Shown piece after piece: positions 27,389 through 64,000 of a DNA stretch of 64,000 nt. The notes below the pieces were generated by a model. It was not told the origin of the DNA and did no database searches. It saw only the letters and a list, made by a program, of their open reading frames with translations. Source of the stretch: Octopus vulgaris (Eukaryota). Made by a program: the position numbers and the translations under genes. The stretch spans positions 49,724,001 through 49,788,000 of the forward strand of contig OX597831.1 in assembly GCA_951406725.2 (NCBI GenBank), in the 5' to 3' direction. Position 1 is the first letter of the stretch; each line of letters starts with the position of its first letter.

Positions 27389-28671
27389 CGAGGGACGTTC
27401 AATAAGTAATGCCTCTGACCCACTTGCAGTTGTTTGATCTAGCTGAAAGTTTGCATGTGCAATTATTTATATCTCTATAGATTAAGTGGTAAATTACAGC
27501 TCTGTGGTTTCTGATTTACATGTGTCTGAACTGAGTCAAGTGTGAAATGGGGCCTGTTGAGTGTTGAGCAGTGATCCGGTTTTTGTATTTGAAAGGACGC
27601 ACACCATAGGAGACTTTTGATGAAATGAAAGTAACTTATGGTGATGATGCCCCATCATATGATCTTGTAAAACGCTGGCATCGTGAATTCAAACATGGTC
27701 GGAACTCTGTGGAAACAGCTCCCAGATCTGGTCGCCCCCTTCTGCCATTGATGAGGCATCTGTCCGTCAAGTTGAGGCTGCATTTTGGAAGATCGATGCA
27801 TAACTATTCGCCTAATAGCCCATGAGGTTAAGATTAGTACCGGATCTGTGGAAACTATCATTCATGACTATTTGCATATGCAAAAGGTGTCTGCAAGATG
27901 GATTCCCAGGTTGCTCACACCTTTCCAGACGCAAGAACACGTCGAGTGCTCAAGGATGAATTTGGAGATGTGCCAAGAAGATGAGTCAAAATTTTTCAAA
28001 AGACTGATTACACAGGATGAAACCTGGGTCCATCACTCTGATCCAGAGACCAAAGCCCAGTCAATGCAATGGAAGCACCGTGACTCACCTCCTCCAAAGA
28101 AGGCAAGGGTGCAGCCCTCCACTGGCAAGGTCATGCTCACAGTCTTCTGGGACCAGGACGGAGTAATGATGACAGATTTCCTGGCAAAGGATACCATAAT
28201 TACAGGAACCTATTATGCTTCACTTTTGAGAAAATTAAGAGAAGCTATCAAAATCAAGAAGGCGGGGTAAGATCAGCAAAGGCATCCTCCTCCTGCAAGA
28301 CAATGCTCTGGTCCACAACTCGCGTGTCGCCAGATCAGAAGCACAGGCGTGCGGCTATGAACTCCTCCCCCATCCTCCTACTCTCCTGACCTTTCACCCT
28401 CTGATTTTCACCTCTTTCCAGCTATGAAGTTGCTTTTGAAAGGAAAGCGTTTCCCAGATGATGCAGCCATGATTTCTGAAGTCACGTCGTGGTTGGAGGA
28501 CCAAGCTGGGGTCTTCTACAAAAACGGTCTCCAGAGCTGCATCAAACAATGGGAGAAATGCGTAACTCTGGGTGGTTCCTATGTAAAAAAAAATCTAATA
28601 ACAGCGCCAAGTTTCGTTGCTCTACTGCTATGGGAAGTAGGTCAAGGGCATTACTTATTGAACGCCCCTCG
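27389..28671 (+). mobile_element. Full-length mariner transposon (DD34D type), 1283 bp
   Basis: TA TSD; TIRs CGAGGG(A/G)CGTTCAATAAGTAATGCC at both ends. Confidence 0.96.
27547..28600 (+). pseudogene. Mariner transposase, with frameshifts and stops
   Basis: PRSGRP, WIPRLL, ITQDETWVHH, GKVMLTVFWD, LLLQDNA and YSPDLSPSDFHLF, spread over several frames. Confidence 0.95.
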
Positions 28672-39851: not shown

Positions 39852-39914
<63 letters not shown>

Positions 39915-40444
39915 ACAACAAATTGAGGAACGGCCATAATAGGCCGTTCGACTCACTAGAAGAAGCAGTCAGGGCTTCAACCGCAAATAGTAGTAATTCC
40001 GTAAACAGAGAAAAATTTAAAAAACATTTACCCTGTTCATCTTTAGACAATGCATTGTTTCATCGTTTTTTATTGGTAAATCAGCCTGATTACATTAAAT
40101 CAAGTCAATCTTCCAAAGGCCAACGCAATTCATCAGTAAAGAGGCCAAGAGGCACAACACATACATATATATACATATTTGATGGACTCCCCCGTGGAAG
40201 ACAACGTATGAGCGTTCATCCTGCACAAATAATTTGTTTATAATGATCAAATGTTCGTGTCACGCATTGGCTCACTCTCTCCATCAAATCGATGTTATCT
40301 GAACAGGTGCACGGCGTACCAGGGGTCAGGTGTCAAGGTGATCAAGAACATGGCGCATTATCCGATCTAGGAATTCAATTCACAAGCAGAACACCCTAAC
40401 TATTAGGCTATGCATCCTCACATATACATACATATATATATATA

Positions 40445-46096: not shown

Positions 46097-47358
46097 GTGT
46101 GTGTGAGGGTACGTGTGTGTATGTGTGTGTGTGTGTGCGTGTGTGTGAGTGTGTGACAGGGATGAGCAAGTCAAACTGGTCATCCTTTTTGCTAGATCAC
46201 CTAACATCTAAAGTTATCTCTAAGTAGCAGTCGCCCAAAAGTGTATATAGACACACACATGTATGTATAATGTGTGTGTATATATTTCCATAGAGGTAAC
46301 CATTCACTCCATACAAAGTTATTTAGGACGAATTGGACGAATATAAGATCTAAAGTATATCCAAGTAGCAGAAAGATCGCCCAAAAGTGTATATAGATAT
46401 TTAAACGTATTTATATATTCATCTATACACACATGTATGTATAATGTGTGTGTATATATTTCCATAGAGGTAACCATTCACTCCGCACAAAGTTTTTTAG
46501 GACGGACGAAAATCTTTATATATAAAAGAAAGGTTGTGTGTCTGTCTACTCCGATTTAGATTCCTAACTACTCCCACATTTTACGATGCAGTTTAACCAA
46601 AACCGAGTATCTTATAGTCGTGATTCATATCGAGCCCTTCTGGGTATTAGCGCGCGTCTACGATGAGTCTACGATTTTACAAATAATTTACGATCATTTT
46701 CTCCCATTTTAATGCATATTTTTTAAATAAAGGGAAGTAACTCTCAAACTTCACACCAATATGCGTGCTCATATGCGACGTAATATCACATCAGCAGCAT
46801 TTCCTCACACCCTCCTTGCACTTGGCGAAGGCAAAATACCAGGGGATGAAAATGGTAATATTGCCATCGATTCCATTTGTACCATTGTTAAGACGCCTTC
46901 TGATCTCAGAGATGCAGTGTTCCAAGATCTACAAGCTAATTATCAGAATATGGATTGGATTGGCCAAAAGGCTATACTGGCCCCGAGGAATAAAACTGTT
47001 CACCATATTAATGATGAAATGCTAAAACTCATTCCTGGGGAAGTCTATGTATATCAGTCTATCAATACAGCTCCTGACCCACAGGACGTCATCAACTATC
47101 CAATAGAGGTACTCAATTCCTTTGAGCACCCCGGACTAACACCACACATTCTCAAACTTAAAGTTGGTGCCCCTATAATGCTCATCAGAAATTTGGTTCC
47201 CCCAAAACAATGAAATGGCACACGTTTGATCGTTAAGTCCTTATCTCCCAGCGTAAACTTATATCAATATTTGCCTGAATAATCATCATAATTCAGTGCA
47301 ATCATTAACAGTACTTTCAAGCAATTCAGCCCCGAGCAACGCCGGGCAATTCTGCTAG
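45399..47358 (+). mobile_element. Non-autonomous Helitron (composite)
   Basis: A|TC 5' end at 45399; subterminal hairpin CCCGAGCAACGCCGGG and CTAG|T at 47355-47359; a second 5'-like end at 46513. Confidence 0.8.
46758..47250 (+). pseudogene. Helitron Pif1-type helicase fragment
   Basis: NMRAH, LLALGEG, AILAPRN, YPIEVLNS, LKLKVGAPIMLIRNL, then [TGA]NGTRLIV. Confidence 0.93.
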
Positions 47359-53616: not shown

Positions 53617-54012
53617 CAGGCGTAGGAGCGGCTGTGTGGTGAGTATCTTGCTTCCGAGTTCAGTCCCACTGCGTGGCACCTTGGGCAACTTTCTACTACT
53701 ATAGGCTCGGGCCAACCAAAGCCTTGTGAGTGGATTTGGTAGACGGAAACTGAAAGAAGCCCGTCGTATATATGTATATATATGTATATGTACGTGTGTG
53801 TGAATATGTTTGTGTGTCTGTGTTTGTCCCACCAACATCGCTTGACAACCGATGCTTGTGTGTTTATGTTCCCGTAACTTAGCGGCTCGGCAAAAGAGAC
53901 CGATATTATAAGTACTAGGCTTACAAAGAGTAAGTCTTGGGGTCGATTTGCTCGACTAAGCGCGGTGCTCCAGCATGGCCACAGTCAAATGACTGAAACA
54001 AGTAAAAGAGTA
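53617..54012 (+). mobile_element. SINE family B
   Basis: Near full-length match. Confidence 0.9.
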
Positions 54013-54889
54013 AAACCCTCTTTCCAAAAACCATACTTTTCTGGCACAATTATTAGCAGGTTCTGTACCACCCATTTATGCTTTTTTTTTTCCCTAAAAA
54101 AAAATTTCTTCGGATTTTTGTTTTTTATATAGGAGAATACGATTTTGCCCCAAAATCCCGCTTTCAAAATTTTAATTCCCCCTCTCTTCCCCAATTTCTT
54201 GATTTTTAACTTTTTTTCCCAATTTTTTTAATCGACGTTGAAAAATACAAAAATTACGAATCAGGGAATCTTTTTCTAAATCTTAATTTTTCTGAAAGAA
54301 ACACCCAACCTCCCCCACCTCCCCAACCTCCCCCACCAATCACCTCCCCACTTTCAATGAGCTAAAAACTGCGAATGTTTCAATTTCGTCTGATGTTTCA
54401 CGCATGCGTAGAATTCTACTAAAATAACAGATGTCAAAAATATCAAACCACTACCAGAAAATCTGACTTGCTAAAAACAACAGCTAAATGACATTATTTC
54501 TGAAAAAACGACCCCGCTTTCAGAAAAGCTAAAAGTGAAACATGCGGAGTTTTTAGCTTTTTGAAAGTGGGGAGGTTGGGGAAGGGATTTGAGTGGTCCG
54601 TTAAGAAAAAAATTGAAAAACAAGTTCTTAAGGATTCGTAATCTCTGTATTTTTCTACGTTGATTGCAAGAAAGAAATTCGAATAAAGTTAAAAATTTAA
54701 AAATTAGGAGGGTGAAGGGGAAAAAATTAAATTTTGGGGGCGAAATCCGAATCTCCAATGTCCAAAGCACAGGAACCCGAAGAAAGTTCGGTAAAAAGGT
54801 GGTGGTGGGGGGGATGGCGCAAATGTCAACTCCGACATGCTAGAAACAACAACCACACTACACGATTTCTGAAAAAAACTTCCTTTTAA

Positions 54890-55110
54890 CCCTTTCACTA
54901 CCAACCTGGCTGAAACTGGCTCTGGCTCTGTAATACAAATGTTTTGTTTTCATAAGTTTTGAATTAAAATCTTCCACCGAACCTTAGTCACAATTGATGT
55001 TCCTAACACTAGCTTGATGATAACTAAGTTATTTTACTAAATTTTTTATTATATTTAAAATAATTGAAAGAAACACAAAGCATCTCAAAATAAATATAGT
55101 AATGAAAGGG
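54890..55110. mobile_element. piggyBac-type MITE, 221 bp
   Basis: TTAA at both sides (54886-54889, 55111-55114); TIR CCCTTTCA(C/T)TAC. Confidence 0.85.
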
Positions 55111-55689
55111 TTAAGACTATATCACAAACATGAATTACAAAATAAATAAAGGTCGGCGGAGTTCTGATCGAATCCCGTATTAAAACTCCTCATAACGTTT
55201 ATATTCTTAAGAATTTCCACAAATTTTTTACGATCCTGTCTTCTGCATAATGGAATTAATACGAATTTTAAAAATATCCCCCCCCCCTAATTCCAAAACT
55301 TTACACTGTCTTTCGATTTTTAAAAAACAAATTCGTTTTTTTTTTATATGGACAGTCCAATTCTGTCATTCGTTTTGTTTATAATTTCAAAATAATTTTT
55401 AAAATTCGAAATCAAAATTGTTGCGTGTTTGTGGAAGAGAAAATTATTTATTAACAGAAAATTATGTTATTAAAATAAATTATCTCTAGCATACGTTTAA
55501 ACTGTTGCGAAAAAAAAACAAAACATTTACTTGCAGAGAATTATGTTATGAAAATAAATTGTCTGTAATATACCTTTAGACTTTTGCGAATATAGTATTG
55601 AAACTCCAAATTTCAATGTGATTATGATCTCGCCAGGGGTCACTCTTTTATCTTGGAAAAAAAAAACAGGGGTCTAATTTGTTAGAAAT

Positions 55690-56760
55690 AAAGAGAGAGT
55701 GTGTATTGTGTCATTCTTCCAATTTTCCTGGCAAAGGAAATTTTGCATACTTACAATATATGACAAAATGTTTTGCCCTCTTCAGTGTAGGTAGAATAAA
55801 TATACATGAGATCCTTCTTGGCCGTGTTGTCATATATTGCAAGTGTCTCGTGTATATATATTCTACCAACACTGGCATTCTCGGATTCAGTGAACATTTG
55901 CTGAAGTGCACAGTCTGCCCAAACGTTACAGAGATGGCGCTTTTCACAATGAAGCAAATTTCTTTCCATATACCTTACCTTCTGCAATACGGATACTTCT
56001 GTGGCCTCATTTGGCACCAATTTCTTTACATCCTCAAGTCTCGTTGCTTACTTTTGCATGTTTGCACTCAAAAGCTAAATAAAGTCCTTTTCTCGTGCAA
56101 CTTATTAATATACTTTTATTCATTTCTGAGGCTTTCACCGTTCATCAGCCATCAAGCCACGCATCAGACCATTACTGCTGCTCCATCTCTGCATACCAGC
56201 ATAAACCATTCATTTTCAAGAAGCACAGAGTCCCTATACATTTATGCCAAACTGCCTACATTACTAACCCTGTTTACTCATATCCTTGTATATGTACATA
56301 TACATACAGACCAAAATGCCCCTTTTTTATTCTCTTGGCCTCAACATTGATATAAACCGATATAAAAATGCTTGCGGAAAATCATTATACTTTTGTACAT
56401 GACTTTTTCATTGGAGAAGCTAACGTATGTGTGTTGCTCACAGTTATCAACAAATATTATGGGACGAGTAAGGACAATTTAAGCTCCTACATTTCCCAAT
56501 GTGTAGCCACGGAACTAAGTTGTCAATATTGCTGTATGAGATACCAAAAGATTGATCAATCTTTCGGACACCAGCGTATAATAAGTTTTTGCACAGCAGC
56601 CCTATTTGACTACAAAAATTAACACCAAAACGAGGCTGGGTCGCAAAATTTTGAGGTCATTTTGGAGGCAATGTTACATTCTCCTTTTAATCTAAGCTGG
56701 ACTTGTACATGTTTTTGGTGTCAAAATTTTCTGCATTCTCCATGAGAAATTGACCAAAAA
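55690..56760 (-). pseudogene. Decayed piggyBac-like transposase fragment
   Basis: RFGVNF...LLYAG, IFVDN, EWFMLVCRDGAAV and a Cys/His-rich C-terminus (HCEKRHLCNVWADC) in the expected order; heavily frameshifted. Confidence 0.45.
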
Positions 56761-57040
56761 ACATGTTTATAAAGAAGAGCTGTTTGCTCGATACTCCTCA
56801 TGTGCCGATTCTGCCTAAAAGAAAGGAAAAAATGATACAATGCGGCTGTAGGTCATAACATCAGGGCAACGCCGGGATGCATTGCTGGTATATGCATCGC
56901 TGCGTTCACACTATTATATCCTTGTCTATAAAATTCGAAGCACATTTGACGCTTCCAGTGTTTCTATATGCAAATATGCATATATACATACAAACATGCA
57001 TACATGCATACATGCATACATACATACATACATACATACA

Positions 57041-57076
<36 letters not shown>

Positions 57077-57167
57077 TAAAGACTTAACGGATTTATAGAA
57101 TTATGCATAAACCTACCTGATTTTGCATATTTATGCACATATATTATATGATATTATATATGCATGC

Positions 57168-57238
<71 letters not shown>

Positions 57239-57727
57239 AGTGTCTGTATGTGTGTCGTTTAAAAAGGTGTGTAGAACTGATACAACAAGAAAATCTGTTA
57301 CAATTATATATATATAACCATACAGAGAGCTATACACACATATGCATACACACACACATATGTATCGCACATATTTTCTTGTGCCTGTGTATGTGCATAT
57401 ATGCATAATTATATGCATTTATGTATGCATAAATGTATATATTTGCTTATATGTATACTTCGAACTTTTTTTTAAGAAATACAGATGTATATTCATGAAA
57501 TATTTTCTCTTTCATATATTTTCCTCTTCTGCTTTTCTTTTGTTTATATAAGCTGAAACAATGCTTCACTATTTTGACAGCCATCTGCTCGTTTCAATTA
57601 TTTTTATACTTGAAAAATTTTTCTGCCATATTTTTCTATTATAAATACTTAATTATGGATGATATATTGATACATTTTACCTGCGTGGTATGTGGACACA
57701 TTTATATACACCCATATTTACATACAT

Positions 57728-57884
57728 AGGCGCAGGCGTGGCTGTGTGGGTAAGAAGCTTGCTTCCCAACAACATGGTTCCGAGTTCAGTTTCACAGCGT
57801 GGCACCTTGGTCAGCTGTCTTCTACTATAGCCTCGAGCCGACTAAAGCCTAGTGAGTAGATTTGGTAGACGGAAACGGAAAGTA

Positions 57885-57922
<38 letters not shown>

Positions 57923-58312
57923 GCTGTACTCTTTCGCCACAACTTTCTCTCATTCTTTCTTCTATTGGCCTGCTCGCTTAGCCAGCGGGGTGGTGTCATT
58001 TGAAGGTTAAAACAATGCGAAGCGCATCGTGAACAGCGATGTGTAACAGCATCTGATAGCCTGGTCGGTCACGGTGATCACAGTGATATATATATACATA
58101 TATGTTTGTGTGTCTTTGTCTCCCCCACCACCACCGATGTTCAGATGCTGGTGTATTTACGTCCCCGTTTTTTTCCGGTAAAAGAGACCGAAAAATAAGT
58201 ATTAGACTTAAAAAGAATAAGTCCTGGGGTCGATTTGTACGACTAAAGCTAGTGTTCTAGCATTGCGACAGTCAAATGACTGAACTGAAACAAGCAAAAG
58301 AATAAAAGAATA
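57728..58312 (+). mobile_element. SINE family B with a family D 3' fragment inserted in its internal (TA)n
   Basis: Family B head to about 57882, family D segment at 57919-58085, family B tail resumes near 58100. Confidence 0.85.
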
Positions 58313-58989
58313 ATAACATATTTTATGTACGTGTGTTTGTGTGTGTGTGAGTGTGTGTGCACGTGTGCGTGAGGATGTACCTAACTTAGTGATTAGGGTG
58401 ATGGAATAATGATCTTAAGATTGTGGCTGTGATTCTTGGAGTGAACGATGTGTTGTGTTCTTGAACAAAACACCTCCTTTCATGTTGCTCCTGTAACTGG
58501 AGTCACTTCTGGCCAATTAGACCGTTGAATCTCTTGCCATCTCCCAGAATACAGATGTCCAACGCAATGGACGACATCAAATGCAGATCTACATTCAAAC
58601 AGATTGCGACATCGTAATACCAGCGCAGCTTCGCTTGCCTCATTGCTCCGAGGCGTTGCTAAACATACCACTTGAATTGCAGTGAACAACCTTTTCTTAC
58701 AACCTTTCCCCCATCTTTTGTTGCTTACCTCCCCTTGTTTTCCTTTTCGTTGCTTCCTTGTTGAAGTTATTCTGTTTCTATTTCTCTCGATGAGTTAATC
58801 TCTTTATTCTTTTAATTTTTCCCTTTCTTATTCCATTTGTGCCACTCAGTTTCATTTCATAAGCTGATAATGCATTAGACGGATGCTTTCGAAAAAGAAA
58901 AGAAACTACAACAACAACAAACAAGTCACATGACCATTTTTATAATTGGAAATATAATTTTCTAAATGTATATCAATTACAATATGTGT

Positions 58990-60500
58990 ACATTGAAATA
59001 TTTGAAAACAAATACGTTAGGGGAATAATTTTATTTGCAATATCGTAATAATATGCGTCCTTACAAGAAAAGATATTGACTATTGTGTGAGGGATGATAG
59101 TAGTGGAATGAGACTTACTGGAAGAATGAAGGACACTATCTTCCATCTTATATTTCATCATCGCCATCTGCTTAATGAGCGAAGATCTTACTTGACGTTT
59201 ATGGATCATCATATTTTTTATAGCGCAGTGTAGGTAACTTCTCTTGCAATTTTCATGTTATGTTCATGATTAGGGTGGTTATGAAGAAAATCCTGGTGGC
59301 CTTCATCTATAAGTGCCACCTCTTTAGCAATATTCTTTGCGGGCAATTTACGTGATCCCTTTTGCATTCTCAGCTTGTTCGTAAGATAAACTTTCTCTAT
59401 GTGGCTCATACAAATTAACCACATCATTCTCTATGGTTTCTTCATTAGCAAGTGTCACAATACTTTCTTGAATTCAGTGTAGACTACATATTTGTGGAAA
59501 TTTAGTAAAGTCATGGGCACATTCTGGTCATATATTTCCAAGCACCATTCAATACTAAGAGTCTTTCTTTATCCCAAGGCTGAACTATGTTATCCGCAAT
59601 ATCCATTATATCAAAGGTTTTCAAGAAATCAAAAGCTCAAGATATACCTTGTCTATTAACTGCTTCCATATGATTGTTTCTTACATTAGATATTACACCG
59701 TGATACATTGGCTGGAGTAGAGAGGTTCTCATATTATTAGAAAAGCTGTTTAAATTCACTGTAGGGAGGAGGCTTTGAGCCATGTCTAAATTGGGGAAAG
59801 CATTGTTGTATATATTGTGTCTGGCACTGTACCTTTCTACGGCAGAACAGAGGATGTGTGTGTTAATCACTCTTCGTAAAACCATTTTAGCAATCCATGC
59901 CATATTCTTTGAACGCCAAAACAGAAATAGATTAAATTTTGCGTAATCCTTCAAAGCTCATGGATTTCAGAGAGACACATGATTAGGAATTTCATTTCCA
60001 TTTTATCAGCGACATTTCTTCTTTGCAGAAGTATCAGTGATTTTAAAATCCAGATGTTGGTTTTTATTTTCGAAAAATGAAACTTATCGCAGGAATGATC
60101 TTTCAGAAAAAAATACATTTTCGTCAATATCGTTCTGGTGTGTATACCTGTCCAGTAATAATTTTTTACAGCTTCTCGGTATAATTAGTAGCAACTTGTC
60201 TATCAGTACTGAAGCTTCATCTGTCAGCTTTTATGTTGTGGATATATAAGCGTCTCTTAACCTTTCAGACCAGCCTTTACTAGGAGGGAAAATAATTTTC
60301 ATTAGAAGTTTCACCTTTTTCTGCAAATCATCATAAAAACATTTGGCTTTTGTTTATTGCTATCGTGTCTATCGGCACAATACGTTGAATCCTATCTCTG
60401 ATCCATACACAAAGAGTCTCATTATAAATATCTCATTAAATATTTGAATAAATAAGATGTGAGCATTTATCAGATTTGCTTTTTCAGCACTTGGTTTAAT
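58990..60500 (-). mobile_element. Decayed R4/Dong-like LINE reverse transcriptase region
   Basis: Residual ordered peptides QLIDKV, FDFLKTFD, FILPVSLIPLL and LTYLF correspond to RT motifs; many frameshifts. Confidence 0.5.
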
Positions 60501-61171
60501 TTTTTCTCTACCGTCAAGTATTTTTACACTGTAGACATTGGGCTTTAATGATTTGGTAAAATGGCTCCCGCATCAACCCATTTTAAAGCATCAAGTTTAA
60601 CGTCACGTGCTCTCTGTTTCCTGTCCATTTTCGGACTAAAACCTCCAAATTCACTGCACAGATTATTTCTTTCGCTACATCTTGTATTGTAGGTAAATCT
60701 AACTGCAAAATCGACCAATAATCATCTACAACAATTTCGGCTAAACAAAGTCTGTACTTCTTCCATACCTTAAGGTTAAGGCATTGATCATTCCCCGAAA
60801 CTCCAATTGTTGCTGTGCAGAGTTTAGTTTGCCATCAGATTCCAGATATGTCTAACTAACTTCGTAGTTTCGTTTTTTTATCTACGTGTCGGAAAGACGA
60901 CTGGTAGCTTGCACATCATTTTTAAAATCACCTTCGCATATACCAATATAATTTTTGTTTTTTGATTATTTTATTTTGGAGCAATGTTGGAGCAGTAGCT
61001 TAAACATAAATCACTCAGCTCATCCTATATGCCTGGTCAAATGGGTTAGTTTCTAGGTTTTGACAGTTGCAACTTGAAGTTGGTTCTTGGTGTGACGTGC
61101 AAGTGATACCTTTAACGTTGGAGCAGCAAATGTATGAAACATATTTATCAGTAATTATATTTATACATACA

Positions 61172-61581
61172 TAGGCGTAGGAGTGGCTGTGTGGTAAGTA
61201 GCTTGCTTACCAATCACATGATCCCGGGTTCAGTCCCACTGCGTGGCACCTTGGGCAAGTGTCTTCTACTATAGTCTCGAGCCGGCCAAAGCCTTGTGAG
61301 TGGATTTGGTAGACGGAAACTGAAAGAAGCCCGTCGTATATATGTATATATGTATATGTGTGTATATGTTTGCGTGTCTATGTTTGTCCCCCCAACATCG
61401 CTTGACAACCGATGCTGGTGTGTTTATGTCCCCGTAACTTAGCGGTTCGGCAACAGAGACCGATGGAATAAGTACTAGGCTTGCAAAGAATTAGTCCTGG
61501 GGCCGATTTGTTCGACTAAAGTCAGTGCCTCAGCATGGCCACAGTCATATGACTGAAACACGTAAAAGAGTAAAAGAGTAA
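61172..61581 (+). mobile_element. SINE family B, full length
   Basis: GGCGTAGGAGTGGCTGTGTGG (A-box-like), GGTTCAGTCCC (B-box-like), (AAAAGAGT)2 tail. Confidence 0.93.
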
Positions 61582-62111
61582 GTACATACAGATATACATG
61601 CAACACACACGTACAAACACACACACACTTACAAATGGACATGCATATATACATATATTACTGGTGCTATAGTAGTAAGTTTTACAATGCCGCGTTCGTA
61701 TATTAAGATCTGAAGCTTTTTAAACACGCACGAACAATCACAAATCACACAAACACATGCATAGATACATATATGTAAGTGTATAAGGAAATACAGAAGG
61801 TTCTGTATGCAATGAAAGAATAAGAGGGTGAGAGAAAATGTGAGAAACAGATTGCAAGAAATACAAATGCGCGTAGAATTGTGTCTGACAATGCGTTTAT
61901 CGCTAGACAAGTAAAAACAAAGGTTGTTTGTGTGACCATTTATGCCGTGGAAATTAACGTCCGAAAATTGGCTTCGTCAAAATAAGTACCAGACTGACGT
62001 AAATCCTCGGGTTGATATCGTCGAGTAAAGCTTTGAAGGTGGTACGGCACCATCATCCCAGTATCGTGACAGAAATAAGTAGCAGAATAAAATCTTATAC
62101 ACACAAACACA

Positions 62112-62186
<75 letters not shown>

Positions 62187-62211
62187 ACACACACAAACAC
62201 ACACACACACA

Positions 62212-62243
<32 letters not shown>

Positions 62244-62533
62244 CAGTGGAATTCGAACAACATGGCCATATACATATGTGTATTATATATATGTATATAC
62301 TTATATATAAAGAGAGAAAGAGAAAGAGATTGAGGGAGAGAGAGAGGGGAGGGATACAGAAAGAGAGCGAGTGAGAGAGTGAGAGAGATAGAAGAGATAT
62401 ATAACGATTAGAGAAAGAGAGAGAAAGAGAGAGAGAGAAAGAGAGAGAGAGAAAGAGAGAGAGTGAGAGATACATATATACAGGGATATATTTATTCACG
62501 TATATAATTTTCACGTATATGCAGGTGTATATA

Positions 62534-62602
<69 letters not shown>

Positions 62603-62752
62603 AGGGCAAGACCGCTAGGTAGTCGGCCGTATGCTAGAAATAGATCACCAACGATCAAACTACAAAGAATGTTCTCTAGAGGAAAATTCAGCGAAACACC
62701 AGAACAATTAGGCGGGCAAGACAGATGAAAATTATATAAAAGAGCAGAATTA

Positions 62753-62830
62753 ATCACATACCGGCGGTTTCAACTATTAACAAAAGAATTACTTACATAA
62801 TCCAAATGTCCGTAGTTTCGTCAGTGCGAT
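62753..62830 (-). ncRNA. Type I hammerhead ribozyme motif, copy 1
   Basis: ATCGCA-CTGACGA-AACTA...TAGTT-GAAACC-GCC-GGTA-TGTGAT; all three stems pair. Confidence 0.85.
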
Positions 62831-63283
62831 CGTTCCGACAAATGTAATTTGAAAAAACTAACCACAGCTTTCTGTGTCAAAACAGACACGTGTTTAGTTT
62901 TACCGATTACATTAGGGATAATTTCAAATGTCTTAGTTCTAGCGCGCTAAAAATTCCGAAAGCGAAGAACTGCAGTAAATAATTTACTGCGGTTAGTGCT
63001 GTCTATTATAGAACATATTAATTTCAATATTTAAATAATGAGGGAGATAAATTAATATCAATTTAAAACCAGTAGCCTAGCATACAAAATTCTGAAAAAT
63101 CAGAGAAAATTCTAATACATGTGTATATTCAAAGGCCAAGACCACTAGGTAGTTGGCCGCATGCTAGAAATAGATCACCAACGATCAAACTACAAAGAAT
63201 GTTCTCTAGAGGAAAATTCAGCGAAACACCAGAACAATTAGGCGGGCAAGACAGATGAAAATTATATAAAAAAAACAGAATTA

Positions 63284-63361
63284 ATCACATACCGGCGGTT
63301 TCAACTATTAACAAAAGAATTACTTACATAATCCAAATGTCCGTAGTTTCGTCAGTGCGAT
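63284..63361 (-). ncRNA. Type I hammerhead ribozyme motif, copy 2
   Basis: Identical by eye to 62753-62830. Confidence 0.85.
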
Positions 63362-64000
63362 CGTTCCGACAAATGTAATTTGAAAAACTAACCCCAGCTT
63401 TCTGTGCCAAAACAGACATATATTAATATTTGAAGCTTTTTAAACAATGAATCTAAGTTTCACGTCGCCAATTATTCAAATGACAGACGTAGAAATGTAC
63501 CGTGATTAAGCAAAAAAATTCTCATTCATTGAAATTTCATTGGTTAGAAAATGCTCGTTTGAAATCCATCATCCGTTCATTTATTCAACTTTATTCACCG
63601 AACAGTTGATAAGTCCTTGTAAATCCATCTTTTCATAATTTTCTCTATTACGAGTATAAAATTTGTACATACAAGTAAAACAGCTATTAGTTATGAAGTT
63701 TTACTCTTAATGGATATAGAATTGTTTTCTCTTTAATTATGTCCTTGATTCAGTTCGTGTCAAATCCTTATGTGGAAAATAACCTATTTTAGCCTGTAGC
63801 TGGTTGAAAATTTCAGCACAGATAAACGAACAAAATTGAAAATTTTAAAGTAAATTGACATATTGAAGAGCAGTTTAACTGCAAATGAGCTATATTATAG
63901 ATTATATTCCAAGGTAAATCTAATAACTTGTATGTATTACCGACCCTTAGATGAAGTACATTATTTCGAATTTCATAATAGTTTACATTTGTTTCATTTA

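Follow-up and report, generated by a model that had tools for sequence, protein, structure and literature searches.

The window, a 64,000-nucleotide stretch of Octopus vulgaris DNA, carries on its minus strand an insertion (62594-63418) that consists of 1.55 units (825/531) of a 531-nt retrozyme, truncated on the 5' side at unit position 402. The insertion is a single arm of 825 nt, primed at the first of two fixed end points described below (E1, unit position about 165-175), and at this 3' end it passes into its target, a (TA)n microsatellite (62527-62593). The upstream (5') 295 bp of the insertion (63124-63418, minus strand) recur as its downstream (3') 295 bp (62594-62888, minus strand) with 97% identity and a period of 530-531. 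The preliminary description of this DNA had reported direct repeats of about 295 bp at a spacing of 531 nt and an end in (TA)n, and both were borne out, the distance from cleavage site to cleavage site being 531 nt. Between the repeats there are 8 substitutions and two indels of one base each; 3 of the 11 mismatches in the alignment belong to the flanking TA tract, outside the repeats. Wherever the repeats differ, one of them agrees with the majority of the family and the other carries a rare base, and these rare private variants are split 4 + 4 between the repeats, with two at CpG. The substitutions therefore look post-insertion, and this pattern suggests that they are most likely neutral mutations that arose after the insertion. 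They had also been thought to miss the ribozyme: all 8 do lie outside it, at a bias short of significance (p about 0.08, calculated by hand for 8 substitutions and a ribozyme of 80 of 295 nt).

The 5' end of the insertion adjoins a 28-nt stretch (63419-63446, plus strand) that is a near-copy (26/28) of 61699-61726 and has no other occurrence in the genome. A larger transposed block, with the 28 nt as its target duplication, was considered and rejected, as the intervening DNA has no donor and is single-copy in the part tested. Among 25 testable single-armed loci of the family, the present one alone had a comparable copy at its junction, and the stretch is most likely a one-off templated filler.

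Two type I hammerheads and a predicted monomer

Each repeat contains, on the minus strand, a CUGACGA core, a 46-nt helix II arm, GAAA, a 3-bp helix III with a GCC loop, GUA and a 7-bp helix I; helix II itself has 5 bp and is lengthened by two further stems. Hammerhead 1 (63283-63362) has its core from 63355 and GUA at 63292-63290, and its helix I can be extended to 63368/63276. Hammerhead 2 (62752-62831; core from 62824, GUA at 62761-62759) has the same sequence. Hence, the claim of two complete type I hammerheads holds, with the CUGANGA core, GAAA, NUH and helices I-III all present in type I order. A strict descriptor matched three times in the window, twice in the insertion and once at 40136, and had no match in 100 dinucleotide shuffles. 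An Rfam scan of 54000-64000 returned no hammerhead at E≤1, a miss that is likely due to the long insert in helix II. In the minimum free energy fold of the hammerhead, helix II is kept and the core is paired otherwise; the active ribozyme fold is predicted to lie 2.4 kcal/mol above the minimum, both alone and in the circle. The motif predicts self-cleavage after GUA, which would delimit a monomer of 531 nt with 33.7% GC (62759-63289, minus strand). Folding of the circular monomer gave a predicted -132 kcal/mol, with z = -6.1 relative to 40 shuffles, and the antisense gave -108, so the monomer RNA is predicted to be strongly self-paired.

The third match to the descriptor belongs to a second, unrelated hammerhead (element at 39910-40145, minus strand), with a CUGAUGA core at 40136, GUC at 40046, a 6-bp helix I, a palindromic helix III and (TA)n about 135 nt downstream; the element looks like a short, truncated copy of Penelope type or of a retrozyme. 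Yet another type I hammerhead, from a further family, was seen as an inverted pair beside a Neptune fragment (L100 3043-3290, the place of L062).

A dispersed family without coding capacity

We searched the 2.8-Gb genome with the monomer and obtained at least 115 matches on many contigs, with 77-98% identity, from the 40 scored of 2414 candidates. One 30-mer of the unit had 411 exact matches in the genome, and a control had 0. The first 100 of the 411 merged into 79 loci; by this measure roughly 320 loci, as a lower bound, would have the exact 30-mer. A check for further tandem copies had been proposed, and it is this dispersed family that the 411 matches revealed. Of the 79 loci, 67 are nearest to a 545-nt subfamily and 12 to the 531-nt form of the window; the two references are identical at 472/527 positions. 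A second motif had 503 exact matches and picks up more diverged sister families as well, at 75-85%. Most copies are 0.1-1.5 units long, and the longest that we found (L009) has 2.94 units and three hammerheads.

The longest ATG-started frame has 26 aa, in the element as in the circularized unit, in agreement with the earlier remark that there is no convincing open reading frame. Among 13 window open reading frames searched against Pfam, the frame overlapping the insertion had no match. Elsewhere in the window, Pfam matched a mariner-type Transposase_1 fragment (27776-28267) and a fragment of a Pif1 2B domain (46731-47210), which by inference is Helitron-like. An abundant SINE-like repeat (58086-58320 and 61336-61588) is also present in many flanks of the family loci.

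We collected 56 hammerhead copies from 41 loci, 55 of them distinct. Helix II occurs in three different sequences, each able to pair; the changes in helix I are in register, and the cleavage site may be GUA or GUC. Over 31 base pairs, 92.5% of cells are paired and 11 pairs have double changes; helices I and II covary, and helix III is conserved without double changes. The pairing score exceeded that of all slid controls and none of 500 shuffles was as high; since the shuffle ignores relatedness and the structure was taken from one member, it is the swaps at subfamily level that count as real evidence. These swaps indicate that the ribozyme is maintained by selection at the level of the family.

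Two fixed ends and two-armed insertions

We analyzed the ends of 123 arms at the 79 loci, taken in chromosome order. Of these arms, 110 stop at one of two points, 49 at E1 (unit 160-180) and 61 at E2 (unit 252-277; alignment overruns were recounted by hand), and 94/123 pass into a microsatellite on the 3' side. Their 5' ends are scattered. Arms often lie back to back: 35 such pairs comprise 29 E1+E2 (3 of them read by hand from split alignments), 1 E1+E1, 0 E2+E2 and 5 irregular ones, and 29 E1+E2 among 30 regular pairs departs from an even split with p = 3e-8. Both points fall within a conserved structured module (unit 95-263; window 63027-63195, minus strand), E1 in a small AC-loop hairpin at about 63115-63125 and E2 at about 63027. 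The stem fold of this region is conserved across 36 sequences, with double changes at 6/27 pairs, and we infer that the module is where reverse transcription starts. An anole Penelope protein extends both DNA strands from two internal starts, which define the genomic tail and sit in an AC-rich stem-loop (PMC11167929). Two internal 3' ends (the tail), inverted arms and a microsatellite target, the hallmarks of mobilization by Penelope, are thus all present in the octopus family.

We also looked at whether 5' ends accumulate at the cleavage site, as they would if reverse transcription ran off cleaved linear RNA. Eight ends lie near the site against 3.1-3.8 expected (p 0.015-0.04), but they fall at the AT-rich positions 3-8 with TA microhomology, and one alone is ≤2 nt from the site itself; we therefore dropped the run-off reading.

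The end points also bear on whether the window locus is a one-off local tandem duplication, or a satellite-type expansion, of a single-hammerhead insertion. Its repeats differ by 3%, and Penelope termini have been proposed to undergo local amplification (bioRxiv 10.64898/2026.07.22.740005). However, copies longer than one unit exist at many loci, fixed 3' and variable 5' ends are the geometry of reverse transcription, and the 4 + 4 private variants between the repeats speak against it as well. The preliminary description had named a one-off duplication of an ordinary Penelope terminus as one outcome that would undo its reading, and the dispersal of the family with ends of Penelope type goes the other way. 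We regard local duplication as largely refuted already and as extremely unlikely.

A candidate Penelope partner

A search for GIY-YIG sequences gave at least 148 matches from the 150 scored of 6136 candidates, many of them intact 781-aa frames with reverse transcriptase (RT) and GIY-YIG domains and a CxxxxCxxC linker, which is a mark of the Neptune clade (PMC8557442). A young Neptune-like family (L084-L091) has such an intact 781-aa RT-GIY-YIG frame and, overlapping it on the upstream side, another frame of up to 479 aa without a clear Pfam match; a motif scan of its terminal repeat found no canonical hammerhead. A second Neptune-like family (L138-L166, 27 loci) stops either at a short end or, 40 nt further, at a long one, both in (TA)n, and 8/8 of its two-armed copies combine one short with one long end. 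In the 3' UTR of this second family, about 130-170 nt before the 3' end, a minimal hammerhead-like motif with a U3-A8 core, a 2-bp helix II and a palindromic helix III could be read by eye; a minimal variant of the U3-A8 type has been described (PMC4209133).

At one locus (L021; G000:C9:12648397-12649620) a Neptune-like 3' arm is fused directly to a retrozyme arm. The Penelope part is the last 490 nt of the L138-L166 family, 96-97% identical to its best relatives, and is followed at the junction by about 20 nt of unit sequence and then by a 1.3-turn unit arm; (TA)n lies on the outer sides and no microsatellite at the junction. The simplest reading of this arrangement would be a template switch within one insertion, and a deletion between neighboring insertions is possible. 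L021 is one chimera among about 150 loci viewed, and it pairs the short end with E1, unlike the one-of-each pattern. A second candidate chimera, L024, was set aside as ambiguous: its Penelope fragment is old (arms 77% identical) and its unit arm ends at position 60.

We asked whether the unit could be the pseudo-LTR of an autonomous Penelope family outside our sample, with the copies as 5'-truncated termini. Its ends do behave as Penelope ends, Xenopus retrozymes are related to pseudo-LTRs (bioRxiv 10.64898/2026.07.22.740005), and about 70 loci were viewed of the 6136 GIY-YIG candidates. On the other hand, arms longer than one unit enter another unit and not an open reading frame, and the sampled termini are unlike the unit, one having the minimal U3-A8-type motif and one no motif in the scan. 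By blastn, the unit and the Penelope termini of those approximately 70 candidates shared short AT-rich words only. By tblastn, four Penelope proteins matched just 3 of 83 loci (the L021 chimera, the old fragment at L024 and a distant match at L023) and 1 of 79 loci that overlap the 83 (L224, a separate match beyond the TA tract). No fixed junction between an RT/GIY-YIG frame and the unit was found in these 83 and 79 overlapping loci, and the proposed check for a unit joined to a Penelope frame thus turned up no copy with the unit as its terminal repeat. Given that the sampled termini share no real homology with it and that arms of more than one unit pass from one unit into the next, the unit, as far as sampled, does not appear to be an ordinary Penelope terminus, and we consider the pseudo-LTR explanation very improbable. 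The original idea of a retrozyme mobilized by Penelope elements is supported by the dispersal of the copies, their lack of a reading frame, the covariation in the ribozyme, the ends of Penelope type and the one chimera that includes a Penelope arm. A Neptune-type Penelope enzyme is the likely inserter of the retrozyme, judging from these features, and the partner family is a candidate only.

The template of reverse transcription

The preliminary description had pictured the insertion as about 1.55 turns around a circular RNA. The length agrees (825/531 = 1.55 units) and a circle fits, as does an uncut linear multimer. Of 62 arms that reach the cleavage site, 54 continue through it, so the template is either a circle or a multimer that stayed uncut; from a cleaved linear monomer, no cDNA could be longer than 175 or 263 nt. 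Among 110 arms, 23 are longer than one unit and one goes past the cleavage site a second time. Minor alleles at non-CpG polymorphic sites are common to successive turns in 45/69 cases and to opposite arms in 58/78, and their sharing between loci is 12.7%. Ordered differences between turns (35 pairs) did not recur, with 13 in the same order and 15 in reverse once two alignment-end columns had been dropped (31 vs 15 before). Together, the allele sharing and the absence of an ordered recurrence fit one homogeneous template. Identity within a locus is about 96% and no higher than to the best other locus, and hence "one molecule" is indistinguishable from "one homogeneous source".

These data have to be weighed against a model with the same family and the same Penelope enzyme in which the template is an uncut linear multimer, or results from tail-to-head template jumping, circles being absent or incidental. 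For the anole Penelope in vitro, RNA that is not processed serves as the main substrate and cleavage is unnecessary (PMC11167929), octopus arms are mostly short with that single double crossing, and arrays reach the 2.94 units of L009, all of which suits a linear template. An array copied in this way would shorten with each round, yet more than a fifth of the arms (the 23/110) exceed one unit, and the 40 best-scoring places of the 2414 candidates include no long array. The lack of recurring order between turns and the compensatory changes that keep the ribozyme fold further argue against it. We therefore judge a linear template unlikely, and equally so its corollary that the hammerhead acts at another step or rarely. 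Xenopus retrozyme dimers were cleaved in vitro in 1/9 cases (bioRxiv 10.64898/2026.07.22.740005). Overall, the arms favor circular RNA, which was probably the template. A circular template would regenerate loci with two hammerheads despite 5' truncation.

None of the sequencing runs on record as RNA contains the unit. Four runs that we guessed to be RNA hold contig fragments of family members (11-24 of 30 bins, without joints), in a form that is strandless and blind to cleavage and circles. Contigs of three runs (X2, X3 and X5) contain a 42-nt piece like unit 1-42 (window 63248-63289) within unrelated sequence, which begins at or near the cleavage site.

Discussion

We propose that the insertion at 62594-63418 is a 1.55-unit copy of a non-coding retrozyme, that the RT-endonuclease of a Neptune-type Penelope element placed it into (TA)n and that its template was probably a circular RNA; we hold this account as a whole to be probable. 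A locus with two hammerheads would be transcribed on the minus strand, and cleavage after GUA is predicted to free the 531-nt monomer; its ends would then be joined into a circle by a host ligase such as RtcB, as demonstrated for other retrozymes. To judge from the ends of the copies, the Penelope protein would nick (TA)n and prime inside the RNA at E1 (about 170) or E2 (about 263); both DNA strands may be extended, one from E1 and the other from E2. Copying would run back past the cleavage site and round the unit to a variable stop, a course that can be seen in the DNA. At the window locus the E1-primed arm of 825 nt would have regenerated two hammerheads, and the 5' junction appears to have been sealed with the 28-nt filler, likely copied from 870 bp away. 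A more specific proposal is that a Neptune enzyme copies one circular retrozyme RNA from two starts at once on both strands of the cut (TA)n, and that L021 is the fossil of one reaction in which both RNAs took part. This we put forward tentatively, as quite possible if short of probable.

A role of Penelope elements in copying animal retrozymes back into DNA has so far been proposed from co-occurrence and sequence relatedness and not shown. The 531-nt family offers testable specifics: its two starts are mapped and lie within a conserved RNA module, its two-armed insertions follow a one-of-each rule that a resident Neptune element also obeys, and one chimera suggests a candidate for the partner. 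Penelope proteins can be assayed in vitro (PMC11167929), and a circular and a linear template could be compared directly in such a system. If two-start copying of a circle, with L021 as its fossil, is correct, the actual partner family would be named and there would be direct genomic evidence that animal retrozymes are mobilized in trans by a rolling-circle route, with no terminal sequence in common. The class of retrozymes is known, so the added value of the window locus is modest.

As far as its sequence can tell, the 531-nt family is an animal non-LTR retrozyme, a class already known, and works like a non-autonomous Penelope element. Animal non-LTR retrozymes as described (PMC7229834; bioRxiv 10.64898/2026.07.22.740005) are likewise non-coding and of low GC, consist of head-to-tail units with a canonical type I hammerhead each, have no LTR and a structured monomer, and co-occur with Penelope elements. 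The corresponding traits of the octopus family are tandem hammerhead units (two, or three in L009), a GC content of 33.7% and dispersed copies, and the window copy has the two units with complete hammerheads that the preprint uses as its criterion (bioRxiv 10.64898/2026.07.22.740005). The unit of 531-545 nt is above the 170-400 nt of the circles shown in 2020 (Cervera and de la Pena, PMC7229834) and within the span of 51-972 bp given by Li, Clavereau and Pollet 2026 (bioRxiv 10.64898/2026.07.22.740005). The octopus family differs in its long three-stem helix II (46 nt), in copies of mostly 0.1-1.5 units instead of long arrays, and in being known from DNA alone, whereas circles have been shown for the retrozymes to which it is likened. 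In the available text of PMC7229834 and bioRxiv 10.64898/2026.07.22.740005 we found no description of two fixed ends with two-armed insertions. Our literature search found no paper on cephalopod retrozymes, the supplements of PMC7229834 and the preprint aside, and the main text of a 2026 octopus repeat annotation does not mention ribozymes.

At first sight the locus also resembles plant LTR retrozymes, whose two hammerheads sit in direct repeats (about 300 bp) that flank a short unique stretch. Those elements have a type III hammerhead, true LTRs and a 4-bp target site duplication, whereas the octopus hammerhead is of type I and the "repeats" form a partial tandem whose 5' ends vary, and there is no 4-bp target duplication; on the hammerhead type and the variable 5' ends we rejected this assignment. 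An autonomous Penelope-like element was rejected as well, in view of the missing fixed junction between an RT + GIY-YIG frame and the unit.

The endonuclease-containing (EN+) Penelope elements of the Neptune clade (PMC8557442, PMC11167929, PMC4209133) resemble the octopus family in several ways: they occur as partial tandems and as inverted arms truncated on the 5' side, insert into microsatellites, may have a 3' tail that lies between two internal starts, and have a hammerhead near the terminus. The 531-nt unit differs from them in having no RT or GIY-YIG frame and no homology to the sampled termini, in a tail of about 90 nt against 30-40, and in a hammerhead that is canonical where theirs is minimal.
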